From the NCBI GenBank assembly GCA_963746685.1, contig CAVVBY010000035.1, forward strand, positions 71,742 through 135,741: a stretch of DNA of 64,000 nt. The letters run 5' to 3'. A program made the translations under genes and the position numbers. The stretch is from an uncultured Bacteroidales bacterium (GTDB lineage: Bacteria; Bacteroidota; Bacteroidia; Bacteroidales; VadinHA17). Position 1 is the stretch's first letter, and each line of letters begins with the position of its first letter. The notes beneath the pieces are model-generated. The model searched no databases, was not told the DNA's origin, and was given only the letters and a program-made list of their open reading frames with translations. Positions 1,482 to 49,639 of this stretch are shown here, one piece after another.

Positions 1482-1502
1482 TTGCATGTTGCCTGTTGTT
1501 TC
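1482..1502. repeat. heptamer-periodic array (ttgcatg ttgcctg ttgtttc) starting at the base after the stop codon
   Basis: Three TTG-anchored 7-nt units read directly from the sequence, immediately after the TAG at 1479-1481. Confidence 0.6.
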
Positions 1503-1529
1503 ATCTTTTGACTAAAGATATTTTAAATT

Positions 1530-1545
1530 CCCCCTTTGAAGGGGG
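1530..1545. repeat. short GC hairpin motif ccccctttgaaggggg
   Basis: 5-bp C/G stem. The same 16-mer (15/16 identical) recurs in reverse orientation at 8087-8102. Confidence 0.6.
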
Positions 1546-1575
1546 TAGGGGGATGTAAACCTGAGTAACATATTC

Positions 1576-3030: not shown

Positions 3031-3061
3031 TGAAATCTGTTTTTCAATCTGAGAGTTGATG

Positions 3062-3152
3062 TTTAATGTTGCAAGTTGCAAGTTACAAGTTATCAACCTA
3101 AACTGCAACCTTAACGATATATAACCCTAAACACTAAACGCCAAACATCTAA
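3062..3152. repeat. 13-unit heptamer-periodic tract (ttgcaag x2, ttacaag ... ccctaaa cactaaa cgccaaa catctaa)
   Basis: The 7-nt phase is maintained from 3062 to 3152 when read by hand. The tract lies between the stop of the 3149..5350 gene and the start of the 1576..3030 gene. Confidence 0.7.
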
Positions 3153-5350
3153 AACCTGAACGTATAAGTATATTTGAGCAATATCGTTCTTCCCGATGAG
3201 TGGGGCAGGAAGGGAGTTTCCCTCCGGAGATCAGTATTTAGTCCCTCGTCATATACAAGCCAGAAATCATTTCCTTCCCGTGGATTATACCTGAACCTGA
3301 TGTTTGAATTTATCTTATCAACAGCTGTATTATACTGAATGAAAGCTGATAAGGAGGTTTTTGTTGTAAGTGTCATCAATCCCCTGATACCTGCAATATG
3401 ATTCGTGAATTTCACTGACCGTGTCGGAAAATTAAGAAAATCGAGATTGTAAATAAGTTTAAGACTAAACCCTGAACCGATATTCAGTAATGGAGATGCA
3501 GAAAATGATAGTTTCTTTCCGTCGTAGAAGCTTCCGGCTTCAGCAGAGAAAATGGCTGATAACGCATGGCTGTACGAGGTGCTGTACTGAGCAGTGATGT
3601 ATGCAAATGAATATCGTCCGGTTAGAACAGACGCCTGGTCATTTCCAAGATAAAGTATGTCAGCCAGATCTTCAAGCTCCCAGGTAGCACTGACTAATCC
3701 CGAGAATCCCTTTTTAGCATCAAAGGACCAGGCGAGTGCTGCACTTGTCGTCTCATGCAAGCTGCTCGCTGTATTTCTGAAATTATAGGTTGTCAGTGAT
3801 ATGCTGTGATATCTGATAGGAATATTACCCTCAGGAAGCCATCCCTGCCGCAGAATACCCCTCACTCCCTGATAGTTATCCTTAACCTCAAAGCCGATAC
3901 CAGGATTGAACCGGTCGCCTGACCATGTATAGACAAAATCATAACCGAATCCTGTCTGATTACGGTGCTCCCAGTTTACAAGAAGTCGGGAAGGAGACAT
4001 ATCAAAAACCTTATTAACTGAATCATTTTCGAACGTTTGGGCCCATCTTACTGTAAGGTATTCATCCCCAATCACTCTTACAACTCCGTCAAGCCCATAA
4101 CCCAGATTATAGGATCCGTTCATTCCAAGACGGCTGGTCAAAATTCCGCCCAGATATGAGTTCTGGTTAAAGACGCTTCTTTTAGTTCTGAACACTCCGA
4201 AGTTTTCGGCAGGATTTTCTTCATACTTAGCAGTTTGCATATCGAGGATCCCGATATCCCACTTGTTTATTCTCCCTGTCATTCTGACTCCTCCAAAGAT
4301 CCTCACAGGGTTTCCATCATAAAGGCCTATCCTTCTGCTATAAAACATATTATTGCCACCCAGGAGAGGAAAATCAAATACATCAGATTTTTCCTGGAAA
4401 AAAATCCTTTTCTCAGGAAAGTATAATGAATAGCGTGTAAGGTTTATCTTCTGATCATCAGCTTCAACCTGAGCAAAATCAGTGTTCACAGTGAGGTCAG
4501 CCGTTAAATTATTTGTAATACTGTATTTTAAATCGACACCGGCATCAAATTTTGGTGTGGTTTTCATCTTATAGGCCGTACCTGATTCAATTAGATCGTT
4601 TGCCTGACCCACTCCCGCTGTAAGGTAGGGAGCGACATAGACAGGGTTTTTTGGTTTCAATCCGGAGAATTCAATTATCGATGTATTTGAAGGTTTCCAT
4701 AAAGAATAAGTGAAATTGGGAGGAATAGCAGGAAAAGTTGCAAACTCAGATTTTGCCGGGGAGTATCTCACAATTGTTATCCCCATCAGAGTCTTTTCCT
4801 CCTGCACCTGGAATCTCAGGCTTGAAAACGGTATCCTGAATTCAGCCGACCATCCCTGGTCAGTAATCTCTGTTTTAACATCCCAGAATGTATTCCAGCT
4901 GAAACTAAGATCTGTCTGTTGATCACTGACATCATTTTGAGCTGTTCCGTCTGTCCGTAATCCGTTAGGATTCGTCCAGAAGGAAACTGCATTCTTCCTG
5001 TCGTTGAAAGAATCGAGAATTATGCCGAGCCAGTCACACGTTCCCTCTGAATAGTCTCTCTTCCGGCTGGTTGCCCTCATATCAGCCGGATTCTTATAGT
5101 TCAGAAAACCGGAGACATAAAAATACTGATCATCATAGGCAATTTTAATGATGCTTGTCTCAGAAGGATCGTTACCGAATACCGGTGTATGCATTATCAT
5201 CGGCAGGGAAGGAATTGCCTGCCAGGCAGTTTCATCAGGAACGCCATCAAAGATTATGGGATTTGTTAATTTATTGACAACCAATGGTGTCTGCGACCAT
5301 ATTTCAGCGGAAAAAACCAGAAATAGACCACTAAAAATAATTCTGAACAT
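3149..5350 (-). CDS. CBM9-like/DUF5916 family outer-membrane protein
   Basis: Signal peptide, then an N-terminal DGVPDETAWQAIPSLP...IAYDDQYFYVSG motif typical of the CBM9-like domain of DUF5916 proteins. The C-terminus ...YTYTFRF ends in Phe, a beta-barrel signature. Confidence 0.7.
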   Translation of the reverse strand: MFRIIFSGLFLVFSAEIWSQTPLVVNKLTNPIIFDGVPDETAWQAIPSLPMIMHTPVFGNDPSETSIIKIAYDDQYFYVSGFLNYKNPADMRATSRKRDYSEGTCDWLGIILDSFNDRKNAVSFWTNPNGLRTDGTAQNDVSDQQTDLSFSWNTFWDVKTEITDQGWSAEFRIPFSSLRFQVQEEKTLMGITIVRYSPAKSEFATFPAIPPNFTYSLWKPSNTSIIEFSGLKPKNPVYVAPYLTAGVGQANDLIESGTAYKMKTTPKFDAGVDLKYSITNNLTADLTVNTDFAQVEADDQKINLTRYSLYFPEKRIFFQEKSDVFDFPLLGGNNMFYSRRIGLYDGNPVRIFGGVRMTGRINKWDIGILDMQTAKYEENPAENFGVFRTKRSVFNQNSYLGGILTSRLGMNGSYNLGYGLDGVVRVIGDEYLTVRWAQTFENDSVNKVFDMSPSRLLVNWEHRNQTGFGYDFVYTWSGDRFNPGIGFEVKDNYQGVRGILRQGWLPEGNIPIRYHSISLTTYNFRNTASSLHETTSAALAWSFDAKKGFSGLVSATWELEDLADILYLGNDQASVLTGRYSFAYITAQYSTSYSHALSAIFSAEAGSFYDGKKLSFSASPLLNIGSGFSLKLIYNLDFLNFPTRSVKFTNHIAGIRGLMTLTTKTSLSAFIQYNTAVDKINSNIRFRYNPREGNDFWLVYDEGLNTDLRRETPFLPHSSGRTILLKYTYTFRF

Positions 5351-7145: not shown

Positions 7146-7853
7146 TTATTTAGCCATTGCTTTTTTCTTTAACTCCTGAGGCATTTTTTCAATGGCATAT
7201 CTTAATGAGGTCCTTGGCATTATCGTCTTATTCCTGATCACATAATCAAATACCTCCTTCTGATAAGCCTGGCTTGCTGCTTTTAGCATCCAGCCATATC
7301 CTTTCTGAACCATATCGTCCTTATCCAGTAGAAGTATACCGGCTATCTCAAATATGTCGTTGATAAACAGTCCCTTTCGTGCAGGAACTATAAGTGTTAC
7401 TGCAGATGCCCTCTTCATCCATCTGCCTTGCAGTTTTGCCCATTTTTTAAGATATGATACTTTCTCCGGAAACATTTCAACAAGAGTGCCTACCGTATGG
7501 TTACATAATGTATCGCATGTTGCCCAGTTGGTTACATATTTGCTGATCCATCTTTCGAATATCTTAATATCGTCAGGAACATATTCCTTTCTTGCATTAT
7601 ATGACCAGTTGCAAGCAATAATAGCTTCCTCCATAAAACCTGATTGCCATAATTCTTCACACAATTTAAATATTTCTGATTTTGGCTTTTCCTTGATCTT
7701 TGCATAATGTTCTTTTCCAATGTTTTCGGTGACTGCTGATTTTAATCCATGGAGCTTTACGGGCTCTTTGAAGAATCTCTCACCTGAGATCCTGGTTTTT
7801 TCGTCAGAATTTGAAATTAAATCATGTCTGACTTCTTCAATTATGTTACTCAT
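7146..7853 (-). CDS. DNA alkylation repair protein (AlkD-like HEAT-repeat family)
   Basis: About 235 aa. ERFFKEPVKLHGL and WATCDTLC... motifs characteristic of the DNA alkylation repair enzyme family. Confidence 0.65.
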   Translation of the reverse strand: MSNIIEEVRHDLISNSDEKTRISGERFFKEPVKLHGLKSAVTENIGKEHYAKIKEKPKSEIFKLCEELWQSGFMEEAIIACNWSYNARKEYVPDDIKIFERWISKYVTNWATCDTLCNHTVGTLVEMFPEKVSYLKKWAKLQGRWMKRASAVTLIVPARKGLFINDIFEIAGILLLDKDDMVQKGYGWMLKAASQAYQKEVFDYVIRNKTIMPRTSLRYAIEKMPQELKKKAMAK

Positions 7854-7870
7854 ATTTTACTATATATTTC

Positions 7871-7909
7871 TGTCATTGCGAACGAGCGAAGCGAGAGAAG
7901 CAATCTTAT
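7871..7909. repeat. REP-like hairpin unit tgtcattgcgaacgagcgaagcgagagaagcaatcttat
   Basis: Direct repeat of the unit at 7959-7998. The shared ends are tgt[c/a]attgcga...gaagcaatc[c]ttat, and the attgc/gcaat ends can pair. Confidence 0.7.
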
Positions 7910-7958
7910 TCTACCCACCCCAAAGCCCCTCCCGGGAGGGGATCTATACCATTTCTAC

Positions 7959-7998
7959 TGTAATTGCGATCACGCATAGCGTGGGAAGCAATCCTTAT
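7959..7998. repeat. REP-like hairpin unit tgtaattgcgatcacgcatagcgtgggaagcaatccttat
   Basis: Second copy of the 7871 unit. The same intergenic region also holds the perfect palindrome cccctcccgggagggg (7926-7941) and a 9-bp-stem hairpin aaatagccc/gggctattt (8054-8074). Confidence 0.7.
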
Positions 7999-8117
7999 CT
8001 TAATATCCCCCCACCACCACAAAACCTTACCCTGCAGGCTGGCTCCGTCGCTAAAATAGCCCACCGGGCTATTTCTTAACGCTCGGCCCTCTTCAAAGGG
8101 GGACTAGTTTATATAAC

Positions 8118-8155
8118 CCTGTCGCCTGCCGCCTCTTGCCTGTAGCCTTTCGCCA
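8118..8155. repeat. heptamer-periodic array cctgtcg cctgccg cctcttg cctgtag cctttcg cc
   Basis: Five CCT-anchored 7-nt units ending at the stop codon (8156-8158) of the minus-strand GH38 gene. Confidence 0.7.
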
Positions 8156-10709
8156 TTATTCCTCCAGCAGATTAACTTCTTTTACGTCCCGTGTTTTGCA
8201 ATTCAACCTCAGACTCTTTATTTCACACGGTTTGAAATTGCCTGTCCATTTTCTGTTTGTAAAGGAAAAATCAACCGTTGCAGAAGTTTCTGTACCTGAT
8301 GTTTCAACACAGCGTATTATGAGATCATCACCTTCCTCTGATTGTTTTATTGCTGAAACGATAATATTCTCATTGTCAACCGAGAGGAACGATCCGGCTT
8401 TGGGCATGGATCCGCCATGTATTCCCTGGTAGATAACGATAGCAGGGGAGAGGAATTCTTCAGCTTTCCTTACAATATTGCTTTTTTGCCATGTATCCTT
8501 GTGTGGGACCAGCAGCATTCTGAATGTATGTATGCCCTGATCCTGCCATATATGTTCCGCATTCATATCAAGGACTCTCGGATTATGATGTGCATACACA
8601 GCCGAACGAATAACTGAGATCCGCATATCATTGCCATTGACACTATACCCATATTTTGCGTTATTTATGACAGCCAGCCCGTAGGGATTCCCCTTGCTGG
8701 TTCCTGTTATGTCGATCCACCTTTGTCCCGGATCCTCATTCCCGTTTGTTGCACGTTTTATGAATCCATAGGGAGTTTCATAAGTTGCAACTGGTGATTC
8801 AATGTTTACAGGAAATGAGAACTTAACCATTTTCAGGTGTTCGTTCCAGTTAAGTGTGATTTTTGATTCAACAGTTCTGGAGCCTGCATAAAGTATCCAG
8901 TCAATGGTCAGTGCTGAAGCGCCATATGTTGTTGTGACTCTTACTATACTGCGAAGTGGTCCTTTTTCCAGCACTTTGATGGAAGCATTCCCGAATGAAC
9001 CGATCTCTTTTGAGAACGTTTTTATGTCGTGGCTCCATGTATCGCTTGGATCATCAATAACTACAGCCCTGCAGCCTGTTTTTCCACCTTCAAATAATTC
9101 CATGCCATTTTCTTTATCCAGGATTCCAATCGTTCCTGAATCTGAAAAACTTACTTTTAGGAACTCATTTTCCATTGTTTGGTTTTCAGCAGTAACACCA
9201 GGTCTTGATTCTTCTGTATCACCAGCCCTGATCCTTATCTGTCTGTAACCGAAAGCAGGAACAGAAGTTCTGACTATTAATCCCTTGCGGCTTCCGGTTT
9301 CAGTTGTTCCGGAACTCCACTGATGCCTGAGAAGATTTCCCTTCTCATCTTCCGCCAGTGACGGATTCCTGGTATCCCAGTTAAGATCATATTCCAGGTT
9401 CCCCTTTATTTCCCACGCATGAGGATTGAAAACCAGAAGATACTGAGATGCAGGATCTTCTGAGGCAACCTGCCATTCGAGCTTCTGTATGGAAGTATAT
9501 ACAGCCTGATGGGCAACATCCAGATGCATGGCCGAAACCTTCCCGAGCTGTTGCTGAGTGTTCGGGGACGGATGTTCCGGCCAGACTGTCGTGAAACTGA
9601 AGGAACAGTACTCTTTTCCATGCAGAGGTAAAATCCTCTTTCGGATATTTATAATCCCAGATTACTGATCCAAGCGCAGATATTTTTTCAGCGGTCACAA
9701 GCGCAGTTTCTGAAAGTCTGTTGCTTTTTTTGATCTCAGCCTCAGCAGTATAGCAGCCGACTGCGTGATGCTGGAGATCATCCTTTATAACCGGAAGAGT
9801 GAGATTCTTATTATTACGAATCTCATTGAAATACTTTTCAGGCGTGCTGAACAGAAGTGTGGGAGCACCATTCTCAGCCTGAATTTCCTCAATAGATGCA
9901 ATGTTCTCTTTGGTTGCTCCGCCTCCATGATCGCCTGCTCCGTAATATGTCATAAAAGTTTGGAACGGCTGATCCTTAAATTGGCTTAAAACCTGTTCAA
10001 CGCGGGTTCTGACGGATCTGCTGTCAGTATAGCTGATCGGGATACGATAAGTCAGAACTCTCGACCCGTCAGGCCCTTCCCACCAGAACATATCAGCAGG
10101 AATGGTTTTTTCTTTCGGTCCCGGACGCATAAAAACGTAATTCTCCATGCCCTGCAATTTGATTATCTGGGGCAATGTACCTGCATGTCCGAATGAATCG
10201 GGATTAAAAGCGACAGTAGCACGATGTCCAAGAAGTCTTTGAAGAGTTAATTGTCCGTACAATCCCTGTCTTACCATTGCTTCGCCACCGGGTATGTTCA
10301 TATCAGGCTCCACCCACCAGCCTCCCACAACATTCCATCGTCCCTCTTCAACACGCTTTCTTATTTCCTGGAGCATTCCGGGATCATTGTCTGCAACCCA
10401 TTGATAAAATTGTGCTGAGCTTGCTGTAAAAGCAAAGTCGGGTGTCTCATTCATCCTGTCAAGTGCTGAACGGAATGTGCTATGAACCACCGCAATTCCT
10501 TCGGACCATGGCCAGAGCCAGACCGGATCAATATGAGCCTGCCCGATAAGGTGAAATCTGTATTTTCCAGCGTCAAGGGGCCATTTGCCCACCTGCTGTT
10601 TTTCAAGTGGCAGGCTATCCAGCAATGGAACGAAAGCTATACCTGCTGTTCCTGCTGCTGCTTTACCTATAAAGCTCCTGCGGTTGATGATTTTACCTTT
10701 TTTCGACAT
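8156..10709 (-). pseudogene. GH38 alpha-mannosidase with Tat signal, split by one +1 frameshift near 9527-9531
   Basis: ORFs 9387..10709 and 8156..9529 are the N- and C-terminal parts of one GH38 enzyme. The first carries NRRSFIGKAAAGTAG and a GH38 N-domain with HIDPVWLW and FLQFHD. The junction reads ...TAREGFGHA / LDVAHQAVYT with one extra base. Confidence 0.8.
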
Positions 10710-10711
10710 AT

Positions 10712-11680
10712 TTATTTTCCATTTTGGACCATTGCTACGCTAAGACTTGCATAATCGCCAACCTCTTCCCCCAGTGCCGCCGGTACAATACTGCAGACAG
10801 CTCTTGCCGGCTCAAGTGCTTCCTGCCTTATCATTTCAAGACACGCAGGTTCAATGAATTGCCTGCAGCGAACATATATGCTGCCAATAACTATCTTCTG
10901 CGGGTTAAGGATATCTATAAGCAAAGAAAGACCCTTGCCAAGATATTCACCCGAGATTTCGAGTATTTTGATTGCTGTTTTATCTCCTGAAAATGCTGCT
11001 TCAGCAACATCCTTAGCGGTTATTTGGTTTATATTCTCAGGAGTATCACAAAATGAAACGGACTGCTTCAGGGCAAATTTTTCTCTTATTATTTGCTTTG
11101 CGAGGAGAGCAATCCCTGTACCACTGCAAAAACCTTCAAATGAGCCTTTTTTGCCATATGCCCTGGGGCCTTCATCAGCCAGGCGAATGTGACCAACTTC
11201 GCCTGCAAGATCATTTGTGCCTGAATAGAGTCGGCCGTTAATGATTATTCCTCCGCCCATTCCTGTTCCGAAAGTCAGGAAAACCATATTCTGAGTGCCT
11301 CTTCCTGCTCCGAATTTCCACTCGGCAAGTGCACAGGCATTTGCATCGTTCTGCAAAAAGACAGGAACGTTGAACTTATCCTTGAATAAATTTACAATAG
11401 GGATATCATTCCATCCGGGAAGATTGGGAGGAGACTGCACAATTCCTTTTGTGCTGTCAAGAGGACCACCACAGCTTATTCCTATTGCTTTTAACTGGTT
11501 TAGACCGAAATTGTCAACAATTTCGGATGCAGACTTCAACAACAGACTAATTGCATGGCCGGGACCTTTGCTTGTCTCAGTGGGGAAACCGGTTTTTTTA
11601 AGAATTTGCATATCCTCTGTTCCGGCTATAACAGAGCATTTGGTTCCTCCAATGTCAATTCCAAGATAATATGGGTTCAT
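10712..11680 (-). CDS. ROK family sugar kinase
   Basis: LGIDIGGTK ATP-binding start, GAGRGTQNMVFLTFGTGMGGG, and the ROK signature region GEVGHIRL. Its stop is 2 nt from the GH38 start. Confidence 0.85.
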   Translation of the reverse strand: MNPYYLGIDIGGTKCSVIAGTEDMQILKKTGFPTETSKGPGHAISLLLKSASEIVDNFGLNQLKAIGISCGGPLDSTKGIVQSPPNLPGWNDIPIVNLFKDKFNVPVFLQNDANACALAEWKFGAGRGTQNMVFLTFGTGMGGGIIINGRLYSGTNDLAGEVGHIRLADEGPRAYGKKGSFEGFCSGTGIALLAKQIIREKFALKQSVSFCDTPENINQITAKDVAEAAFSGDKTAIKILEISGEYLGKGLSLLIDILNPQKIVIGSIYVRCRQFIEPACLEMIRQEALEPARAVCSIVPAALGEEVGDYASLSVAMVQNGK

Positions 11681-11689: not shown

Positions 11690-12931
11690 TTATTTAATGT
11701 TCTTCCAGAATTTCTCCTCCGATTTATTAAGTTCAATTTTCTTCTTTCTTTCGAGGAAATAATAAAATAATAATGCTACTATACCTGTAACCAGCAGCCC
11801 AAGAATGAGATGCTGCATAATATTCGAAATATGTGGATCTGCCGGAGTTGCCTGGTTATTCCGAAAGGTAACATCAGTGACGCTTTCAGCTTTTCTTCCA
11901 ACCTCAATACCGAAAATATTTTTTGCAAAAAACAATGAGAAAAAGGCTAAAAGACCTGAGAAAATGGGTGTGGCTACCCATCCGGCAGAAATTTCACCAA
12001 GTATTCTGAAATTAATGTTCCTGGCTCCTCTGTATAATCCGATTCCGATTACACAGCCAATTATCACCTGTGAAGAGGATACCGGTACCATCGGAATAGG
12101 AGGCAATCCGATTTTGACAAATACCGAAGAAAGCCAGGAGGATGAGAATATAAAGAGTACCAGTGTCAGCGCAAGAACAGTTACAAGGGCAGCTTCGGAA
12201 GAGAGTTCTACAATATTGTTCCCGACTGTCTCCATTACTTTTTTAGAATAGGTCAATATTCCGGATGCAATAGCTAATCCGCCAAGCAGAAAAAGTTGTT
12301 GGGCGGAAGAAAGTGTGAATAATCCCAAATTAAGGTCCTGAAGGTTAAATGCAGGAACAAACACTCCCATCACATTGGCGATATTGTTTGCACCCAGGCT
12401 GAAGGCGCCAAATGCTCCGACAATTAAAAGACCGGTCCGGATATATGCCTCAAAGCGGATAAGGTGTAATGATGAATTTTTCTTGATAGTTTTGAGAATT
12501 ATGTACAAAAGGATTGCAAAAACAGCACCCAACACCGGACCAGATATCCATGTCGAAATTATCTGGGTCAATACCCTGCTGTCCGTATGATTTCCGGTGA
12601 AGAGGTTCCATCCAATAATTGCGCCTACAATTGCCTGTGTGGTTGATACAGGAAGACCAAATTTAGTCATAATATAAACTGTTATTGCGGCTGCCAGAGC
12701 CACAGTAAATGAACCTCCGATTGCATTGACAGCGCCAAGTTTGCCAAGAGTGTCAGAAGTTCCTGCTCCCTGTATAACGGCACCCAATATGACAAATACT
12801 GATGCAATAATTGCGGCCTTTCTGAAGCTCACCATCTTTGAACCTACAGCTGAGCCAAAGACATTAGCAGCATCGTTGGCGCCAAGTGACCATCCCAGGA
12901 AGAGACCGCTGGTTAAGAAAAGTATTATCAT
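11690..12931 (-). CDS. inorganic phosphate transporter, PiT family
   Basis: GANDAANVFGSAVGS and a second GANNIANVMG half-repeat, with multiple TM segments. Confidence 0.9.
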   Translation of the reverse strand: MIILFLTSGLFLGWSLGANDAANVFGSAVGSKMVSFRKAAIIASVFVILGAVIQGAGTSDTLGKLGAVNAIGGSFTVALAAAITVYIMTKFGLPVSTTQAIVGAIIGWNLFTGNHTDSRVLTQIISTWISGPVLGAVFAILLYIILKTIKKNSSLHLIRFEAYIRTGLLIVGAFGAFSLGANNIANVMGVFVPAFNLQDLNLGLFTLSSAQQLFLLGGLAIASGILTYSKKVMETVGNNIVELSSEAALVTVLALTLVLFIFSSSWLSSVFVKIGLPPIPMVPVSSSQVIIGCVIGIGLYRGARNINFRILGEISAGWVATPIFSGLLAFFSLFFAKNIFGIEVGRKAESVTDVTFRNNQATPADPHISNIMQHLILGLLVTGIVALLFYYFLERKKKIELNKSEEKFWKNIK

Positions 12932-12957
12932 AGATCAGAACTAAATATTATTCTTTT

Positions 12958-13015
12958 GACTCACGACTCATGGAAATCATTTTTCCGGGCATCTTGCGCC
13001 GTGTGCCCTGTGTCG
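12958..13015. repeat. heptamer-periodic arms (gactcac gactcat ... tgcgccg tgtgccc tgtgtcg)
   Basis: Read directly from the sequence. The right arm ends 3 nt before the stop codon (13019-13021) of the minus-strand DUF47 gene. Confidence 0.55.
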
Positions 13016-13018
13016 TTT

Positions 13019-13669
13019 TTACATCACAATCTTAATCGCCATTGCTGAGAGGAGATCCGCTGCCTTCTGGGCATTGTCAGAAATATTCTCGATATGATGA
13101 ATAATATATCTGAGATGTGCTTTATGCGCCAGATCCAGATCCTTCATTTCCTGAAATATAATCCTGGTGGTGTTTCTTGATACCTTATCAGTCTCACTTT
13201 CGAAATAGTAGACTTTAAGTAGTTTTTCCCTGACTGTATAGGGCGATTTGAAATATGCCCTTGCAGCAGGTATAAGCTCTTCCCCCGCGCAGACAGAAGC
13301 TTCCATAATACTTATGAAATTGTGGTTAAGCGATGCCGGAATTTCAGGCATTTCAATACTGAATTCATTTAGTGAAGATTTCAGAGTATCGATAATTTCA
13401 TCGAGGGAGTCAATAAGTGAACTTACCTCGCTCCTGTGCTGCGGAAGGATTGAATGGGTTATCATTTCATTCTCTATTGATCGCTGGAGTTTATCTGCAT
13501 TGCTTTCAAGCAATTCTACCTTCTGAATATGTCTGTTAAATGTTTCCATATCTTTTTCGAGGTAGGCTTTCACACCTTCCCTGAAAACAAGCAGTCCCAG
13601 ATCAATATTATCAAAAAACTCATCAATCTTTATAATGAGATTTTTTGTGGTCCTCGTAAATACAGCCAT
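13019..13669 (-). CDS. DUF47/PhoU-like putative phosphate-transport regulator (TIGR00153-type)
   Basis: About 216-aa all-helical protein directly upstream of a PiT gene. It is a paralogue of 47936..48586. Confidence 0.8.
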   Translation of the reverse strand: MAVFTRTTKNLIIKIDEFFDNIDLGLLVFREGVKAYLEKDMETFNRHIQKVELLESNADKLQRSIENEMITHSILPQHRSEVSSLIDSLDEIIDTLKSSLNEFSIEMPEIPASLNHNFISIMEASVCAGEELIPAARAYFKSPYTVREKLLKVYYFESETDKVSRNTTRIIFQEMKDLDLAHKAHLRYIIHHIENISDNAQKAADLLSAMAIKIVM

Positions 13670-19396: not shown

Positions 19397-20641
19397 ATGA
19401 AACGTAACTACTACCTCATCTTCCTCATTTTCCTGATCTTTTTTGCCATCTCCTTTCTTACAAATATTCTGGGATCGATCAATCCCAATGTAAGTGACAG
19501 TTTCTCACTAACCGGAACAATGACAGGTATGCTGCCATTCTCATTCTTTATTGCATATGGCTTAATGTCAATACCTGCCGGGATGATAATTCAGAAATAC
19601 CATGAAAAAAAGAGCCTGACATTTTCCTGGATCCTCTCATTTGCTGGAGCTATGCTGTTTTCTCTTTTCCCGACTTTTCCGGTTTTCTTATGTTCTTTGT
19701 TTATGATTGGTTGCGGAATGGCAATCATGCAGGTTGCTATTTATCCACTGTTGAGGACTGCCGGCGGTGAAGAGCATTTTGCTTTTAATTCGGTGATTGC
19801 CCAGCTTGTCTTTGGTGCTGCTTCTTTTCTGAGTCCTTTCGTTTATTCATATCTGGTTCTTGGCCTCGGAAATCAGCAGGCAAATGATGCATTTTTGATC
19901 AGGCTTATGGCGTCCCTGACACCACAAAAACTGCCGTGGGTCTCAATATACCTGCTTTTTACGATAATAAGTCTTTTAATGGCCACAATAATTCTTGTAA
20001 CACGCTTTCCCAGGGTGCAGCTTAAGGAGGAAGAAATTGTAGGGGCATGGGATACACATGTTGAATTATTCAAACAGAAAAAGGTATTACTTTTCTTTTT
20101 CGGTATATTCTGCTATGTGGGTACTGAACAGGGAATTGCGAACTGGATCTCTGAATTTCTGAGAACCTACCATGGTCTGACACCTGAAGTTGAAGGGGCA
20201 AGAGCAGTCGGACTCTTCTGGGGTATGATGACAGTCGGCTGTGTTCTGGGATTGTTCTTACTAAAGGTAATGGACAGCAAGATCGTATTACGGATATTTA
20301 CTCTGGCAGCTCTGATTATACTGACATTCACGCTTTTCGGCAGGGTTGAATTTGCCCTTTTCGGTTTCCCTGCTCTCGGCTTTTGCCTGTCGGTGATGTA
20401 CGCAATCATTTTCTCACTTGCACTTAACAGTGTTTCAAAGTCGCACGGATCATTTGCAGGCATACTATGTACAGGAATTGCCGGAGGTGCAATAGTCTCT
20501 TTGCTTATCGGGAAGCTAAAGGATGTTATTGGACTTCAGGCCGGAATGACCGTACTGTATCTTACTTTAGGTTATATTCTGAGCCTCAGCTTCTGGGCAA
20601 AACCGATAATAACGAATGCAACTATAAAAAGGAAGAAGTAA
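19397..20641 (+). CDS. MFS sugar transporter (FucP / glucose-galactose transporter-like)
   Basis: About 12 predicted TM segments. The N-terminal pattern resembles FucP-type MFS permeases. Confidence 0.75.
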   Translation: MKRNYYLIFLIFLIFFAISFLTNILGSINPNVSDSFSLTGTMTGMLPFSFFIAYGLMSIPAGMIIQKYHEKKSLTFSWILSFAGAMLFSLFPTFPVFLCSLFMIGCGMAIMQVAIYPLLRTAGGEEHFAFNSVIAQLVFGAASFLSPFVYSYLVLGLGNQQANDAFLIRLMASLTPQKLPWVSIYLLFTIISLLMATIILVTRFPRVQLKEEEIVGAWDTHVELFKQKKVLLFFFGIFCYVGTEQGIANWISEFLRTYHGLTPEVEGARAVGLFWGMMTVGCVLGLFLLKVMDSKIVLRIFTLAALIILTFTLFGRVEFALFGFPALGFCLSVMYAIIFSLALNSVSKSHGSFAGILCTGIAGGAIVSLLIGKLKDVIGLQAGMTVLYLTLGYILSLSFWAKPIITNATIKRKK

Positions 20642-22480: not shown

Positions 22481-23316
22481 ATGAAAAAATCAGTGATTTT
22501 TGGATTAATGCTGTTACCTGGTCTTTTATGCCTTGGACAGCGTCCGACGCAGCAACCTCCTGCAACCAGACAGCAAACAACTACAGCTGCGACAGAGTCA
22601 GCGTGTACCTGAGGATTCAACAGTAAAGATGACTCACTTTCAGACAGAAATTTGGGATCCGGAAATCCCAATGGTGCAACCAGCTGCTAAAATTGGTGAT
22701 CCACCAGCTGATGCGATCATTTATTTGATGGAACGGACATTAATAAAGAATGGGAAGAAGCTCCGAGGTGGTGTTAAGCCAGCAACCTGGATTATAAATG
22801 ATGGAGCAATGGTGTCGGTTAAGGGTTCCGGCTCATTAAAAACAAAGCGTGTTTTTAACGATTTCCAGCTGCATGTAGAATGGAAAACTCCTTCTGAAAT
22901 AACAGGTTCAAGTCAGGGCAGGGGAAACAGCGGTGTTTATTTTACAGGATTTGTACGAAGTGCAGGTACTGGATAGCTGGCATAATCGTACATATCGTAA
23001 TGGCCAGGCCGGAGCTTTTTACAAGCAATATGCTCCGCTTGTAAATGCCAGCAGAAAACCAGGAGAATGGCAGACCTACGATATCGTGTACACTGCTCCC
23101 CGCTTTGGTAAAGACAGCACCACTTATTTTACTCCGCCAAGGGCAACTGTATTTCACAATGGCATATTAATTCAGAACAATGTAGCTTTGCGTGGTCCGA
23201 CTACGTTTGTTGGAATTCCGGAATATCTTATCAGGAAACATGGTGCCGGCAGTATACAATTGCAGCAGCATGGAAATCCGGTTGCATTCAGAAATATCTG
23301 GATAAGGGAACTTTAA
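22481..23316 (+). pseudogene. DUF1080 (3-keto-disaccharide hydrolase-like) protein, copy 1, four frame changes
   Basis: The signal peptide MKKSVIFGLMLLPGLLC is in one frame and the body in another. An internal compensated pair lies at 22719-22764. The last shift is at T4 22940-22943 (GNSGVY / LQDLYEVQVLDSW). Copy 2 is intact. Confidence 0.8.
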
Positions 23317-23325
23317 ATTGTATGA

Positions 23326-23450
23326 CCAGTTGCTGGGTCTGGGTGCTGGTTGCTAGTTGGATAAATTGAGATTAATGATTTTTATTAATTATATAATTAA
23401 AACATTCAACTTGTTGAAAAACAACAAGCAACGAGCAACAAGCAACAAGC
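23326..23450. repeat. paired heptamer arrays (G/T-rich arm 23326-23360, A/C-rich arm 23421-23450) followed by TTTTATTTG
   Basis: ccagttg ctgggtc tgggtgc tggttgc tagttgg ... acaacaa gcaacga gcaacaa gcaacaa gc. The arms are partly complementary. The element starts 10 nt after the stop at 23314-23316. Confidence 0.75.
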
Positions 23451-23608
23451 TACTTTTATTTGTTAATTGAAATCATATAAGAAATTATTAATTTTACAGA
23501 ATAAATCCAACTTAACAACAAATTTAAAATACCTGACAATGAAAGAAAATTCAAAACACATTTACACGCCGCGAATTTATTGGAGCAACCGGTGCTATTG
23601 CAGCAGGG

Positions 23609-25033
23609 TTGACAATACTTCCGAGCTCCGTTGTAAGCGGATTAGGCCACAGGGCTCCGAGCGACAAGCTTAATATTGCTGTTGTCGGAATCGGTGGAAT
23701 GGGAAATTCAAACCTGAAGAATGTTGCCCCTACAGAGAATATAGTAGCTCTATGCGATGTTGACTGGGGATACGCCAAAAAAGTCTTTGAAGCAAATCCC
23801 AACGCAAAGGCATACTGGGACTGGCGCAAGATGTTTGATGAAATGGGTAAATCAATTGATGCAGTTATTGTTGCAACTGCCGACCACTCTCACTGTGTCG
23901 TAGCTTCCAATGCAATAACTTTGGGCAAACATGTCTACGTCCAGAAACCTTTGACTCATTCAGTTTATGAATCAAGGTTGCTTACCAAACTTGCCGCAAA
24001 ATACAAGGTTGCAACCCAGATGGGCAACCAGGGTTCCTCCGACGAGGGAGTGAATCAGACTATTGAATGGCTGCAAGCTGGCGAAATTGGTGATGTCAGA
24101 AAGGTAGAAGCATTTACCGACCGGCCTATCTGGCCACAGGGACTTAATGTTCCAAAAGGTGAGTGGGTTCCCGAAACACTTAACTGGGATCTCTTTATTG
24201 GTCCGGCAAAAATGCGTCCATATAATAGTCTTTACACTCCGTGGAACTGGAGAGGATGGTGGGACTTTGGGACTGGTGCACTTGGTGACATGGCCTGCCA
24301 TATTCTTCATCCTGTTTTCAAGGGACTTCAACTTCAATATCCAATAAAAGCACAGGGTAGTTCAACATTACTTCTAACAGATTGTGCACCAAATGCTCAG
24401 ATGGTTACTCTGATTTATCCTGAACGGGTTACAGCGAAAAATGCTAAAATGAAACTTCCACAGGTTGAGGTTACGTGGTATGATGGTGGTCTTCAACCTA
24501 CAAAACCAACCGGTTGGCCTGCAGGTAAAAATATGAATGACGGTGGTGGCGCTGTAATTTTCCATGGCACAAAAGATAAACTGATATGTGGATGCTACGG
24601 CAAAGATCCATGGCTCCTGTCTGGCCGTAAACCTGTAGTTCCCAAGACTGAAAGAAGAATTGAGAATGCAATGAGAGGCGGACATGAAATGGATTGGGTA
24701 CGTGCCTGCAAAGAGAGTGCTGATAGCAGAGTTAAAACAAAATCTGATTTCTCAGAAGCTGGTCCATTCAACGAAATGGTTGTTATGGGCGTTCTTGCTG
24801 TAAGACTTCAGGGACTGAATAAAGAACTCGAATGGAATGGTGAAAAAATGGAATTCACAAATATCGGCGCAGAGGACAAGGTAAGGCTTACCATCTCAGA
24901 TAATTTCACAATCATTGATGGCGATCCTAAATTCAACAGACCAAACCTCACTCTGGATGCCAGACAGTTCGCATCAGAAATGATTAAGCATACTTATCGT
25001 CCGGGATTTACATTACCCCCAATGCCTGCTTAA
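23609..25033 (+). CDS. Tat-exported Gfo/Idh/MocA oxidoreductase, copy 2 (glycoside 3-dehydrogenase-like)
   Basis: NIAVVGIGGMGNSN Rossmann motif plus conserved PLTHSVYE and WNWRGWWDFGTGALGDMACH. The in-frame upstream sequence encodes TFTRREFIGATGAIAAG (Tat motif) but has no start codon. The ATG at 23539 is one frame off across A4 at 23553-23556. Confidence 0.85.
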   Translation: MTILPSSVVSGLGHRAPSDKLNIAVVGIGGMGNSNLKNVAPTENIVALCDVDWGYAKKVFEANPNAKAYWDWRKMFDEMGKSIDAVIVATADHSHCVVASNAITLGKHVYVQKPLTHSVYESRLLTKLAAKYKVATQMGNQGSSDEGVNQTIEWLQAGEIGDVRKVEAFTDRPIWPQGLNVPKGEWVPETLNWDLFIGPAKMRPYNSLYTPWNWRGWWDFGTGALGDMACHILHPVFKGLQLQYPIKAQGSSTLLLTDCAPNAQMVTLIYPERVTAKNAKMKLPQVEVTWYDGGLQPTKPTGWPAGKNMNDGGGAVIFHGTKDKLICGCYGKDPWLLSGRKPVVPKTERRIENAMRGGHEMDWVRACKESADSRVKTKSDFSEAGPFNEMVVMGVLAVRLQGLNKELEWNGEKMEFTNIGAEDKVRLTISDNFTIIDGDPKFNRPNLTLDARQFASEMIKHTYRPGFTLPPMPA

Positions 25034-44048: not shown

Positions 44049-45171
44049 ATGCAAAAAAGTCTGAAGCTGATTCATCTTGTGGTGATCGTGTTGGCAGCGA
44101 CATCGTGCGCCCTGAACAGAAATTTTGCAGGTTCAAAAAGTGTTGTGACATCTCTTTCAGATAAAACAACTGTATACAGAAGGAAGCCTTGTATATGGTC
44201 TTCCTCTTACTGTTGTGGATGTTGAAATCGAAGCAGAACGGGTGATTGAAAAACCCGGACCTTATTCGCGCTTCGCAGGGGACTTGCTCGGACTAACTGA
44301 TGTTATAAAGGCAGAAAATGAGTTCTGGACTATTACCGGGATAACTGTAAACACTCATGAGGAACTCGATCCGGAAGAGTTTTATGTTATTGAAGCAAAC
44401 TCTATTTTTCAGACAAATGTTCTTGCCCTGAAGAAATCCGGATTAATACTTGACTTGAATCCCGGATTATATAATACATTTAAAGACAAGGATCAGAATG
44501 ATCTGAATGATTTAAGCAATTTAAGCATCTATGATCTGGGTTCAGATGAGTATTTTCAGGACAGAAGAGATACTCTTTATAAAATTGTAAGCCTCGACAC
44601 TGCTTTTGTGAGGATCCCATATCTTGTCGAAAAAAAACAAAAACTGACCATTGATCAGCTTGCTGAGAAGGCTGCCATTCGTCTTATGGAACTGAGAGAC
44701 GGTAAACATCTGATCCTGACAGGAGAGACCAATGTATTTCCACAAAATGAAGCTGCAATAAATGAAATGAATCGTCTTGAAAAAGAGTACACTGAACTCT
44801 TTACAGGAAAAATACTGAAGGAGAAGCGGATATTTAGTTATCAGGTAATTCCCCGTAAAGATTTAACTGACAAACAGGTCACTTTGTGTACGTTTTCAGA
44901 ATTGACCGGTCCGGCTGAATCATCTGAAAAGTCTGGCTCTCCGGTTATTATGGAATTCAATCCTGAGATGAAAACCAGGAATCTCAATATTATTTCCGGG
45001 AAATCGGGAGCCTCCCCGGCTCAAAAATATGACAAGCTGTTTTACAGGGTGCCTGATGTTGTTAACGTAAGGATTATGATCGGGAATGAAGTCCTTAATA
45101 AATCACGTAAATTAATTTATCAGTTTGGAGAAATTATCAGGTTACCAGCAAATTACATAATCGGAAAGTAA
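44049..45171 (+). CDS. DUF4831-like lipoprotein, interrupted by a +1 frame change near 44172-44178
   Basis: MQKSLKLIHLVVIVLAATSC lipobox in one frame. TEGSLVYGLPLTVVDVEIEAERVIEKPGPYSRFA continues in the next frame. Confidence 0.65.
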
Positions 45172-45187
45172 TTACATTGTAATTACA

Positions 45188-45280
45188 GGTTGCGGGCTTC
45201 AGGCTTCAGGCAACAGGAAAGCCAATATTTTCATTGCGGGCATTGATTTGCATGTCGCCTGACGCCAGCTGCCAGACGCC
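45188..45280. repeat. paired heptamer arrays (ggttgcg ggcttca ggcttca ggcaaca / tgtcgcc tgacgcc agctgcc agacgcc)
   Basis: GG-anchored arm at 45188-45222 and GCC-anchored arm at 45253-45280. The pair lies between two convergent stop codons (45169-45171 and 45283-45285). Confidence 0.7.
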
Positions 45281-45282
45281 TT

Positions 45283-45810
45283 TTATTCTATTCTCCCTTT
45301 AAAAGTACTTTGATATTCCTCCCACTTCTGGGTTTCGTATGCCTTGTCGGCAAAATATGTCAGGAGCATCTCCATCTCTTTTGGCTGTCTGAATCCGGGT
45401 ACAGGTTGGACCTGAAATTTATCACCCTGCTTTATAAAGAATACCACTGTAGGATACGAAAGCTGGCCATTAAGTAAAGCAACAGCAAGCTGATGGGCTT
45501 TTCCGGCTTTGCCGTCATTGATGAAAGTCTGTCCAAAGAAATTGATGCTCTCTTTTCCTTCCGCATCAAACTTGACAGGATAGAATCTATTATTAAGGAT
45601 GTCAGCAATCACTGAGTTGGAGAAAGTCTCCTGGTCCATCTTCTTACACCATCCGCACCAGTCAGTATATGTATCAATGAAGATTGGACGAAATGATTGT
45701 TTGCTGAGCTTTTCGGCTTCCTGAATAGTATACCATTTTACTGCTTTATTCTGGGAATATGATGAAATGGTCAGAGTAATAAGTAAAATAAACGAAAATG
45801 CCTTTTTCAT
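45283..45810 (-). CDS. secreted thioredoxin-fold protein
   Basis: Signal peptide and the CxxC motif WCGWCKKM. Confidence 0.8.
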   Translation of the reverse strand: MKKAFSFILLITLTISSYSQNKAVKWYTIQEAEKLSKQSFRPIFIDTYTDWCGWCKKMDQETFSNSVIADILNNRFYPVKFDAEGKESINFFGQTFINDGKAGKAHQLAVALLNGQLSYPTVVFFIKQGDKFQVQPVPGFRQPKEMEMLLTYFADKAYETQKWEEYQSTFKGRIE

Positions 45811-47509: not shown

Positions 47510-47842
47510 ATGGGATCCAACGAATTTGAGAAAGGTAAAGCCTTCAGTTTTAATGATTCAATTGAATACTCGGATGGAGGTATTGTAAGCAAAACGGTAC
47601 TGAATAAGGAAACCGGGAATATCTCTCTCTTTTCTTTTGACAAGGGAGAAGCACTTAGCGAACATACTGCACCATTTGATGCTATGATTCAGGTAGTCGA
47701 GGGGGAAGGCGAGATAATAATAGGAGGGAAGTCAAATATTCTTGCTGCCGGTCAGAGCATCATTATGCCTGCCAATATACCACATGAAGTTAAGGCATTG
47801 GAGAAATTTAAGATGGTACTGACTATGATTAAAAGTAAATAA
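47510..47842 (+). CDS. cupin domain protein
   Basis: 110 aa. Cupin motifs HTAPFDAMIQVVEGEG and MPANIPHEV. Confidence 0.75.
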   Translation: MGSNEFEKGKAFSFNDSIEYSDGGIVSKTVLNKETGNISLFSFDKGEALSEHTAPFDAMIQVVEGEGEIIIGGKSNILAAGQSIIMPANIPHEVKALEKFKMVLTMIKSK

Positions 47843-47844
47843 AT

Positions 47845-47931
47845 GGTTTGCGGTACGGGGTGCGGGGTATGGGGAAAACCAATCCGCTTTTATTATGTTT
47901 TTCCTCATACCCCTACCACGTACCCCGGACC
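47845..47931. repeat. paired heptamer arrays (ggtttgc ggtacgg ggtgcgg ggtatgg ggaaaac / cctcata cccctac cacgtac cccggac)
   Basis: Starts 3 nt after the cupin stop and ends 5 nt before the convergent DUF47 stop. The arms form an imperfect inverted repeat of about 28 nt. Confidence 0.7.
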
Positions 47932-47935
47932 ATTC

Positions 47936-48586
47936 TTATGCCATCTTAATCAGAATTGCTCTTATAACATCTGTTACATCCTCTTCTTCATCGACTGTCC
48001 TTTCAAGGATTTCCAGTATCTTGTTATTTTTCAGGAGCTCGGCAGCGTCTTTCTCTTTGTCAAAAAGCTCAGCAACTGCGACGTAATAGTACTCATCAGT
48101 TTTGTGCTCAATTTCCTTTACTTTGGCACAAGCCTGCAGAATCTCTTTCTTGTTTGCAGCAACATCGTTCAGGGAATGGACACAAACCTCAATTTCAAGG
48201 GCTGCGGCATGGATCATTTCTGCCATTTCTTTATAAACTTCCATAAGTTTCTTGGGTTTGTAAAGGCAGATCCTCCGGCTTACTCCGTCAATTGAATCCA
48301 CAACATCATCAATACTTGCTGTCAGTTCATGAATATCCTCCCTGTCAAAAGGAGTAATGAATGATTTGTTAAGGGCCTGAAATGATCTGTCAGTTATCTC
48401 ATCGCCAATATGCTCCACTTCCTTGATCTCCTTATGCAGCTTTTCATGAGTTTCAGGATCAGTGCTTGACATTTGTTTTCTGAGAAGTTCTGTAGCTTTT
48501 ACGAGATTTCTTGCATCCTCTTCAAAAAGCGGGTAAAACGAATGGTCTTTAGGAACAAAAAATTTAAGAAACTTATCTATGTTCAT
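47936..48586 (-). CDS. DUF47/PhoU-like putative phosphate-transport regulator, second copy
   Basis: Paralogue of 13019..13669 (shared ...FYPLFE..., IDGVSRR and HKTDEYY-type helices). Adjacent to a PiT gene. Confidence 0.8.
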   Translation of the reverse strand: MNIDKFLKFFVPKDHSFYPLFEEDARNLVKATELLRKQMSSTDPETHEKLHKEIKEVEHIGDEITDRSFQALNKSFITPFDREDIHELTASIDDVVDSIDGVSRRICLYKPKKLMEVYKEMAEMIHAAALEIEVCVHSLNDVAANKKEILQACAKVKEIEHKTDEYYYVAVAELFDKEKDAAELLKNNKILEILERTVDEEEDVTDVIRAILIKMA

Positions 48587-48640
48587 ATATTGGTTTATTT
48601 TATTGGTTTATTTTAATAATTACATGTCTTTTAATATTTA

Positions 48641-49639
48641 TTACATAGCTGGAAAAACCAAAGTAAAAAAGAAATACATTGTACCCCCAATGACCGCTGA
48701 TACGGGAATTGTGAGTATCCATGCCCAGAAGATTTTTCTAGTTACTCCCCATTTAACTGCAGAAAGACCTTTTCTGGCTCCCACTCCCATAATGGCTCCA
48801 GTAATCGTATGCGTTGTACTGACAGGTATCCCCAAAGAAGTAGCGCCAAAAAGAGTAAGAGTTCCCGCTGTCTCAGCGCAAAAACCTTCAAAAGGTTTTA
48901 GTTTAGTTATCTTCTGTCCCATGGTCTTGACAATTCTCCATCCTCCGAATAATGTGCCCAAAGCAATCGCTGCCTGGCATGATAGAATGACCCACATAGC
49001 AGGACGTCCATCAGTTGGGGAGGCCAGGCCTTTGACTATCAGGGCTGCCCAGATTATTCCCATGGATTTCTGGGCATCATTACCTCCATGACCTAAACTA
49101 AATAATGAAGAAGAAATAAGCTGAAGCCGCCGGAACAATTTGTCAATTTTAAATGGAGCCATTTTTCGGCATAAATAGACAACGGTGGTTGAGATGATAA
49201 ATGACAAAACCATACCAAGAAACGGAGCAATAAAAATAAATGCAACTATTTTCAAAACGCCTGATACAACTACGGAACTGGTTCCCGAATGTACAATTGA
49301 AGCACCAACAAGTCCACCAACCAATGTATGTGATGAGCTTGACGGAAGCCCCCACCACCAGGTTACGAGGTTCCAGGTTATTGCAGCAAATAGGGCTCCG
49401 GCAATTACCGTATGATTAAGGACATCAACATTAACTACTCCTTTCCCAATAGTGTGAGCTACTTTCATCGGAAATACGGTAAATGCAATGAAATTGAAAA
49501 ATGCTGCCATGGAGACTGCTGCCAGTGGAGAAAGAACTTTTGTTGAAACAACAGTTGCTATGGAGTTGGCAGAATCATGAAACCCATTTATGAAGTCAAA
49601 AATTATAGCTAAGGTAACAACAATATACAGAGAGGTCAT
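48641..49639 (-). CDS. inorganic phosphate transporter, PiT family, second copy
   Basis: GFHDSANSIATVVST and GHGGNDAQKSMG half-repeats. Confidence 0.9.
   Translation of the reverse strand: MTSLYIVVTLAIIFDFINGFHDSANSIATVVSTKVLSPLAAVSMAAFFNFIAFTVFPMKVAHTIGKGVVNVDVLNHTVIAGALFAAITWNLVTWWWGLPSSSSHTLVGGLVGASIVHSGTSSVVVSGVLKIVAFIFIAPFLGMVLSFIISTTVVYLCRKMAPFKIDKLFRRLQLISSSLFSLGHGGNDAQKSMGIIWAALIVKGLASPTDGRPAMWVILSCQAAIALGTLFGGWRIVKTMGQKITKLKPFEGFCAETAGTLTLFGATSLGIPVSTTHTITGAIMGVGARKGLSAVKWGVTRKIFWAWILTIPVSAVIGGTMYFFFTLVFPAM

Follow-up and report, generated by a model that had tools for sequence, protein, structure and literature searches.

The DNA analysed here, a stretch of 64,000 nt from contig CAVVBY010000035.1 of an uncultured Bacteroidales bacterium (VadinHA17 lineage) that we refer to as the window, carries close to a stop codon an element made of two arrays of tandem heptamers. 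The element follows an open reading frame (ORF) at 22933..23316 encoding the C-terminal part of a 3-keto-disaccharide hydrolase (Pfam), whose TAA occupies 23314-23316; the first heptad arm begins 10 nt further on. The parts of this focal element are:

23326..23360, plus strand: arm 1, five G/T-rich heptads (ccagttg ctgggtc tgggtgc tggttgc tagttgg)
23361..23420, plus strand: spacer or loop of about 60 nt, A/T-rich, with small internal hairpins in the minimum free energy (MFE) structure
23421..23452, plus strand: arm 2, made of four heptads rich in A and C (CAACAAG/CAACGAG) and able to pair with arm 1 in two registers or more
23454..23462, plus strand: T-rich tail, TTTTATTTG, directly 3' of arm 2, by its sequence a candidate U-tract

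Tandem Repeats Finder (TRF) called both arms at period 7, arm 1 over 23329-23359 (4.6 copies of GTTGCTG) and arm 2 over 23422-23450 (4.1 copies of CAACAAG, 90% matches), in agreement with an earlier note on this DNA that had placed period-7 arms at 23326 and about 60 nt further on. Arm 1 contains the G-tracts GGG, GGG, GG and GG, the spacer contains a local palindrome at 23387-23406, and arm 2 reads acaacaa gcaacga gcaacaa gcaacaa gc (23421-23450), followed by tac and then by TTTTATTTG. The inverted-repeat arm within arm 1 (23339-23359) pairs both with 23422-23442 and with 23429-23449, two registers 7 nt apart that are each 81% complementary, and a scan of all registers gave peaks every 7 nt with 0.59-0.72 of the positions paired. 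The earlier estimate that about three quarters of positions pair in one register, and the suggestion that several registers are available, are both borne out. Rfam returned only chance-level matches at 23250-23560 (E = 0.36-0.99) and none at the gathering score in the whole window.

Period 7 was specifically enriched in the window and in related Bacteroidales loci. Segments of 28 nt with at least 22 self-matches numbered 15 for period 7 and 0-1 for each other period from 3 to 15 in the window, and strong period-7 segments numbered 3, against 0.07 +/- 0.25 in dinucleotide-preserving shuffles, a comparison of the kind that the earlier note had proposed as a check. The related loci were 160 in total (about 2 Mb) and sample two genomic neighbourhoods, with 80 loci (1.37 Mb) around PhoU_div orthologues and 80 metagenome loci (0.59 Mb) around Gfo/Idh/MocA orthologues. 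The PhoU_div loci contained 98 period-7 segments, compared with 1-26 for each other period from 4 to 13. A second detector gave 102 for period 7 and at most 32 for other periods in this set, 32 and at most 20, respectively, in the Gfo/Idh/MocA loci, and zero period-7 arrays in a 150-kb control from E. coli K-12. The PhoU_div protein of the window (47936..48586) has its best relatives, at no more than 91% identity, in metagenome-assembled genomes (MAGs) labelled uncultured Bacteroidales or Rikenellaceae, and a Joint Genome Institute (JGI) metagenome contig carries genes identical to those of the window. Some relatives have arrays of period 8 (GGTACAAT; GGTCATGC in eleven copies) or period 9 (AGTCACTCT) at the same 3' positions (L011 at 10652-10737, L023 at ~10660, L067 at 10652-10750, and L080 in the thioredoxin (Trx) gap), which implies that seven is preferred but not exclusive.

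The arrays are confined to the 3' sides of genes, where they abut the stop codon and are G-rich and C-poor on the sense strand. Gene calls followed a longest-ORF heuristic, which limits the precision of the gap and stop-distance counts given here, and orthologous sites are phylogenetically non-independent, so that the p-values are optimistic. The density of matches was 11.1 per kb in noncoding and 0.23 per kb in coding DNA, with 127 of 138 arrays being intergenic. Arrays occupied 24% of convergent gaps (42/173), 9% of co-directional gaps (42/475) and 1.5% of divergent gaps (3/202; Fisher p ~1e-12), the last of which make up one third of all intergenic DNA. In 57 of the 98 array-bearing gene 3' regions the first array starts no more than 10 nt beyond the last base of the stop codon; overlap with the stop codon itself is seen in many arrays. 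On the sense strand, G exceeded C in 49 stop-adjacent arrays and C exceeded G in 6 (p ~2e-9); the corresponding ratios for the first 40 nt after stops were 27:3 and 44:8 with arrays and about 1:1 without them. The G bias is seen on either side of convergent pairs and hence tracks the gene, not the strand of replication. These repeats constitute a real, clade-wide class of 3'-proximal heptamer simple sequence repeats (SSRs), G-rich on the sense strand, and the focal element is a member of it. Genes with arrays also showed a commoner TAG and a rarer TGA stop than other genes, a difference on which we do not rely (p = 0.013, uncorrected and from non-independent sites).

A typical array has 3-6 units, and the units are highly diverse: 60 arrays comprise some 50 canonical ones. 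Of the 60 units, 33 contain GG, 10 GGG and 3 CC, and in the stop-adjacent arrays from loci L002-L081 and from the window an A precedes the G-run in 40 of 55 units, which produces a periodic A-GG motif. Arrays of 3, 4, 5, 6 and 7 units numbered 70, 28, 13, 9 and 4, and this length distribution held no preference for four units of the kind associated with G-quadruplexes (G4). Both the monotonic decay in length and the number of different units point to slippage-like behaviour. Two other ideas about the units were tried and rejected: seeding of arrays from the heptamer at the stop codon, as the 8 nt upstream match the unit at 2.0 of 8 positions in phase and 2.1 out of phase, and selection of units for stops in three frames (7 mod 3 = 1), as the sense strand has stop triplets in 18 of the 60 units and the antisense strand in 20.

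Several families of heptamer repeats have been named. The classical units of the STRR (short tandemly repeated repetitive) family reportedly read CCCCAGT, TTGGTCA and CAACAGT, according to the 1990 work of Mazel and colleagues. No tandem copies of these STRR1-3 units, of GGGAATC or of GGGGAYT were found in the window or the 160 related loci, and TAACTGA was in tandem in one of the 160, as a single pair in L086. Among the longer SSRs of prokaryotes, heptamers are summarised as the most abundant class, whose cause was proposed to be polymerase slippage across a contact of 7 nt (Mrazek et al., 2007, via PMC4679880 and PMC4692102), and the general intergenic excess was also surveyed by Mori et al. 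(2019, PMC6344855). Period 7 was likewise the most abundant short tandem period in the intergenic DNA studied here; the surveys do not include the anatomy of gene ends, strands and hairpins, and uncultured Bacteroidales MAGs of this lineage lie outside their analysis. The G-rich heptamers of Xanthomonas (GGGAATC) and Nostoc (GGGGA(T/C)T) overlap a stop codon or lie at most 50 bp from it, with the coding strand as the G-rich strand, and they are enriched in non-coding DNA and depleted in coding DNA and between divergent ORFs; their inverted pairs can form stem-loops, their length and sequence vary widely between close relatives, they form G4 in vitro, and no function was found for them (Rehm et al., 2015, PMC4692102). 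The Bacteroidales arrays follow all of these placement and strand rules (3/202 divergent gaps, 57/98 near the stop, G>C 49:6). Unlike those repeats, they comprise about 50 units, many of them without G-runs, and show neither a GGGNATC consensus nor a four-unit preference.

Cyanobacterial STRRs, which are intergenic tandem repeats of 7 bp, have the potential to fold into hairpins, as between hupS and hupL, and are proposed, not shown, to act in transcript stability or translational coupling (PMC2670836). They belong to another phylum (heterocystous cyanobacteria), and stop abutment and sense-strand G bias are not part of their definition. The statement in the earlier note that no description was known in Bacteroidota-like genomes is incomplete, as direct repeats of TAACTGA occur in Beggiatoaceae, Cyanobacteria and five Bacteroidetes (MacGregor, 2015, PMC4679880) and other intergenic heptamer repeats have been noted in Gramella, Aequorivita and Elizabethkingia (PMC4679880). 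TAACTGA arrays consist of one unit and lie mostly just upstream of start codons, whereas the Bacteroidales arrays have many units and lie after stops. The arrays described here are a known phenomenon, stop-proximal heptamers, in a new lineage, marked out by the diversity of the units and the lack of a four-unit preference.

The other sites in the window at which period-7 sequence had been noted are:

47843..47935, no strand assigned: strongest example, with a GG-anchored arm (47845-47875) and a CC-anchored arm (47901-47932), filling the convergent cupin/PhoU_div gap
45188..45222, plus strand: GGC-anchored arm (GGCTTCA type); the DUF4831 gene 44215..45171 has its stop 17 nt before it (TRF 45195-45211; Pfam)
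45253..45282, plus strand: GCC-anchored complementary arm and TTTTATT, directly next to which the convergent thioredoxin-like gene 45283..45810(-) has its stop
3060..3153, minus strand: two-armed array on the sense strand of gene 3149..5350, with a GTTTAGN arm (3123-3153) and then an AACTTGY arm (3062-3097)
8118..8154, minus strand: single-armed GGCNNNA array of 5 units, starting 2 nt past the stop codon of GH38, 8156..9529(-) (TRF)
1482..1502, plus strand: weak three-unit array TTGCATG TTGCCTG TTGTTTC, directly after the stop at 1479-1481
12935..13018, minus strand: weak heptad-like stretches, a doubtful member, between PhoU_div (13019..13669) and PHO4 (11690..12931)

Beyond the focal site, TRF called period 7 at 3068-3091, 3123-3153, 8118-8154, 45195-45211 and 47852-47874 (2.4-5.3 copies), so that the recurrence claimed in the earlier note holds for 3062-3153, 8118-8154, 45188-45280 and 47845-47932. 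Sites 1482 and 12958/12995, with about three degenerate units each, fell below the TRF threshold and are doubtful; taken singly they are not distinguishable from chance. The distance from a stop codon to the first arm, read in the direction of the gene concerned, is 0-16 nt at all the listed sites, much as the few to about 15 nt stated before. A GG arm followed by a CC arm, described as the usual layout, is seen at 23326, 45188, 47845 and, on the minus strand, 3060-3150; 8118 and 1482 are single-armed. The array at 8118-8154 has no partner arm, and after it come a C5/G5 hairpin and a conserved 50-nt element. At the DUF4831 site, 45192-45213 and 45248-45269 form an inverted repeat (77%) with register peaks of 0.57-0.76, and a T-rich tail is again found at 45281. 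The AACTTGY unit (3062-3097) contains the palindrome TTGCAA. Between the DUF4831 stop and the heptad arm, at 45172-45187, lies a palindromic motif, TTACA(A/T)TGTAATTACA, which is conserved in L026, L032 and L031 and may be a protein-binding site; L037 and L043 carry GTTATAAC palindrome repeats at the matching position. The window also contains two PhoU_div and PHO4 phosphate-transporter pairs in opposite gene order (11690-13669 and 47936-49639), and a heptad-like element lies 3' of each PhoU_div gene.

Considering how the elements fold, the general feature of the class is a G-rich sense-strand array at the stop, and the hairpin of G arm, loop and C arm is a frequent special case, because only 13 of 48 testable stop-adjacent arrays in relatives have a significantly complementary downstream partner (duplex z < -2) and several gap-filling arrays are unstructured. 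These 13 lie mostly between convergent genes, with duplex z reaching -7.5 at its lowest, and independent arrays drawn from about 50 unit types would give far fewer complementary arm pairs. The earlier proposal of terminator or stabiliser hairpins may apply to some long, T-tailed stems and is not supported as a general rule. The site at 47843-47935 has an MFE of -51.1 kcal/mol (z = -7.3 on the plus strand for 47840-47940 and -6.2 on the minus strand), and the focal fold (23317-23465) was modest, with z = -2.3 (plus) and -3.3 (minus). The 3040-3150 region folds on the sense strand only (-24.5 kcal/mol, z = -1.9, versus -13.6 kcal/mol antisense). Folds were no better than shuffles for 8060-8158 (z = +1.4), 1479-1575 (z = -0.85) and 12932-13021 (z = -1.3). 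T-rich tails follow the long hairpins of some elements.

Comparison of orthologous gaps revealed that the heptamer elements are optional and turn over quickly between species, with both the copy number and the units of the arrays differing at orthologous sites. By reading of the sequences, the PhoU_div/cupin gap holds two-armed heptad hairpins with related GGTNNGN/NCNNACC units in about 12 species, single arrays of other units in about 10, and an ordinary compact hairpin with a T-run in L018, L027, L036, L037, L042 and L043, other species having tiny gaps. Thirteen aligned heptad hairpins from this gap show GG columns every 7 nt in arm 1 and CC columns every 7 nt in arm 2; RNAalifold on the 13 orthologous gaps returned 6 consensus pairs, with ambiguous registers and variable loops. 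The DUF4831/thioredoxin gap (orthologous to 45172-45282) presents the same mixture in 51 species, with 11 gaps of 8 nt or less and with arms akin to that at 45188 (AGGCNNC) in L026, L032, L019 and L005. The focal gap is the least conserved of those compared: L082, where the neighbouring protein is 87% identical, has two GTTGCTG units and an unrelated CCGCACC-type array, and in L084-L089 and L118 the gap is short, A/T-rich and without an array. The comparison of relatives suggested in the earlier note has thus found heptamer hairpins in some gaps, and other units, ordinary short terminators or nothing in others.

Strain variation was assessed at 47843 in six contigs encoding an identical cupin protein. 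All six of the variable columns fall inside the 93-nt hairpin (47843-47935), the flanking coding sequence (about 78 nt) being invariant; the strains differ by substitutions and one 1-nt indel only, and the stem is kept at -43 to -51 kcal/mol in all six variants. Two changes are private to the window, an A-to-G in one arm and a deletion of 1 nt in its partner, and taken together they hardly alter the energy (-50.7 vs -51.1 kcal/mol). This retention of the stem suggests selection on structure and is the best evidence for it here, though drawn from a single element; several frameshift-like breaks are present in the window, so that a sequencing error there is possible. For the 45172 element, a look-up of the exact thioredoxin-like protein, intended to yield strain variants, returned no record.

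We propose, with a probability of roughly one half, that the arrays are repeats of the 3' untranslated region (UTR) born by slippage, and that the two-armed forms are bidirectional terminators or stems that protect 3' ends, a function that we infer. Arrays would arise and change by replication slippage and would persist only in 3' regions that are transcribed and untranslated. A G-rich array and a reverse-complement array around a loop, a layout typical of convergent gaps and present also at 23326-23452, would give the transcript a long imperfect stem and then a U-rich tail, and the stem would most likely act as a (bidirectional) intrinsic terminator and/or as a barrier to 3' exonucleases. With arms made of tandem repeats, the stem should still pair after the gain or loss of a unit, and this register tolerance is likely a consequence of building stems from such repeats and not a demonstrated design. 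Single-armed arrays may be the raw material, or have some other role. An equivalence to terminators is suggested by the PhoU_div/cupin gaps, since orthologous positions hold either heptad hairpins or ordinary hairpin-plus-T-run terminators. Like intrinsic or bidirectional terminators, the two-armed elements come after stops and combine a stem-loop with a T-rich tail and an A-rich lead, and they occupy the same orthologous positions as ordinary short terminators. Unlike them, they have 25-35 nt per arm with regular mismatches and loops of 14-60 nt instead of 3-8, and their role in termination is a prediction. A standard terminator scan does not call these elements (counts of 13, 23 and 31 against about 17 expected); being blind to loops longer than 8 nt, it is uninformative for two-armed elements.

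A number of observations weigh against this proposal. The focal element beats shuffles only modestly in folding (z = -2.3) and the 45172-45285 element does not beat them (z = -1.2 and -1.5). Duplex z exceeded -1 in 28 of the 48 stop-adjacent arrays, that is, most have no partner arm, and several arrays, among them those of L060, L061 and L068, span a convergent gap from end to end with hardly any Watson-Crick pairing (z >= 0). A crude hairpin-plus-T-run predictor was positive in 28-39% of gaps with arrays and in 38-47% of those without, and, being positive at least as often in gaps lacking arrays, is too permissive to tell the two apart; the T-rich tails, moreover, lie in part within the end of the convergent gene. 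In many cases the orthologous gap is only 0-10 nt long, which implies that the elements are dispensable, and the six strains show zero copy-number polymorphism at 47843. Lastly, slippage alone leaves the sense-strand G bias and the abutment of stop codons unexplained.

The main rival, which we hold to be rather unlikely, is that the arrays are non-functional mutational by-products, heptamer slippage arrays surviving where they are harmless, i.e. in 3' untranslated DNA, with hairpins arising incidentally through inverted duplication and a transcription-linked process setting the orientation of expansion; R-loops after the stop, with a G-rich non-template strand, would be one such process, although this is speculation. 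Dispensability and fast turnover fit such an origin, many relatives having gaps of 0-10 nt or no array, as do the monotonic length decay with no preferred copy number, the roughly 50 units, the predominance of single-armed arrays, the gathering of several other small repeat elements in the same 3' gaps, and the failure to find a function for analogous repeats (PMC4692102, PMC6344855). It is hard to reconcile with the strong G bias on both sides of convergent pairs, which leaves no room for a replication-strand effect, with arrays that start at the stop codon even in long co-directional gaps, with complementary arm pairs far above the expectation for so many unit types, and with the preservation of the 47843 stem across strains with an energy-neutral pair of changes. 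It is distinctly less probable that the G-rich sense arrays are themselves the functional unit, a periodic single-stranded signal in the 3' UTR or the non-template DNA to which hairpins are secondary. The signal could be read as G-quadruplexes or by a protein binding one heptad per subunit, for which cold-shock-type OB folds and HutP-like proteins (triplet + 4 nt) are models. The 49:6 bias, the GG, GGG and CC counts (33, 10 and 3 of 60 units) and the A-GG motif (40/55) agree with this, and textbook G4 motifs can be read in (GGGTTTC/A)6 of L061 and (GGGCACA)n of L074; Xanthomonas and Nostoc heptamers form G4 in vitro (PMC4692102), and one CspB molecule per heptamer is cited in PMC4679880. Many arrays, however, contain no GG at all (the AAAAGTA, AAAGACA and GTTACAA families), the four-unit preference of the Xanthomonas G4 repeats is missing, and the lack of a common anchor triplet makes a single sequence-specific reader unlikely; no candidate protein was identified. 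A periodic single-strand or G-quadruplex signal is possible for a subset of the arrays. We likewise doubt that, in this clade and perhaps in any genome rich in heptamer repeats, a G-rich heptad array exactly at the stop is a general, orientation-specific 3'-end signal read by a dedicated mechanism; that mechanism could be a heptad-periodic RNA-binding factor or a termination route through G-rich non-template DNA and R-loops, with hairpins as one variant.

Mobility is a very improbable explanation, in which the two-armed elements would be copies resembling repetitive extragenic palindromes (REPs), bacterial interspersed mosaic elements (BIMEs) or miniature inverted-repeat transposable elements (MITEs), with heptamer arrays as terminal inverted repeats. 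The REPs and BIMEs of enterobacteria are small structured repeats of 3' untranslated regions near stops, often in inverted pairs, that protect mRNA 3' ends, and the arrays resemble them as small structured repeats at 3' ends close to stops. The 135-nt focal element has the look of an insertion, the orthologous gap of close relatives being without it, arms of the TGGTTGC/GCAACCA type recur in unrelated gaps of other species (L027, L051, L076 and L082), and REP-like elements are abundant in the same gaps. On the other hand, REPs are dispersed copies of one conserved palindrome mobilised by REP-associated tyrosine transposases (RAYTs), while the arrays differ in sequence site by site: units, loops and flanks are different at every site in the window, no near-identical dispersed copies, shared termini or target duplications were seen, arrays of the same unit have unrelated loops, and single-armed arrays do not fit.

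Other small repeats lie in the window and its relatives. A conserved element of about 50 nt (window 8012-8098, minus strand) consists of GGCCGAGCGTTAAGAAAT, a stem of 7-8 bp and then ATTTTAGCGAyGGAGCCrGyCTGCAGGG; it sits in 3' gaps beside heptamer arrays and is preceded by a C-run/G-run hairpin. Further copies occur in L003 (~19992-20078), L027 (~7230-7316, minus strand), L035 (~4838-4924) and L038 (~4890-5026, tandem copies). The consensus fold is -19.1 kcal/mol, with compensatory changes at three apical pairs among only 5 copies, and allowing E <= 1 still brought up no Rfam match; an undescribed REP-like element is one possibility, a small RNA another. C4-6...G4-6 hairpins followed by TAGGGGG or a TTGGGGTGGG tail (window 1529-1556, 8087-8102 and 7925-7945; L009, L051, L052 and L080) are often directly 3' of single-armed heptamer arrays. 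Hairpin-like repeat units of the form GATTGCTTC...CGCAATGACA (window 7870-7910, 7955-7995 on the minus strand and ~13880; L064 and L116) are another small dispersed repeat family in 3' intergenic DNA. A MITE-like element at 61629-61810 has inverted ends AGGCTGTATCAAAAGT and ACTTATGATACAGTCT and an internal GTCATGACGGGGTGG hairpin, with akin pieces at ~53040-53075 and ~47450 and a similar GGTGTCTAAAAAGTC motif at ~51285 and in L025. Frameshift-like breaks split the 3-keto-disaccharide hydrolase over two frames (22533-23316) and GH38 (8156-10709), and overlapping transposase-like fragments lie at 51506-52947; a further break, at 23539-23609, affects the gene for a twin-arginine translocation (TAT)-signal Gfo/Idh/MocA protein, where the ATG (23539) is one base out of frame with the ORF, at an A-run. 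The breaks could be homopolymer sequencing errors or real pseudogenes.

Heptamers are reportedly the commonest short periodic repeat in bacterial intergenic DNA, and published surveys call their function unknown. This lineage offers an unusually clean case, in which stop-tied, strand-biased repeats stand beside ordinary terminators at the same orthologous positions; paired and unpaired forms can be directly compared, which makes the terminator or stabiliser hypothesis and that of a mutational by-product testable. For annotation, it means that standard terminator finders miss long, mismatched stems with large loops. If the arrays are such general 3'-end signals, the 'prime-number' periodicity of bacterial intergenic DNA would gain a role in ending or protecting transcripts.

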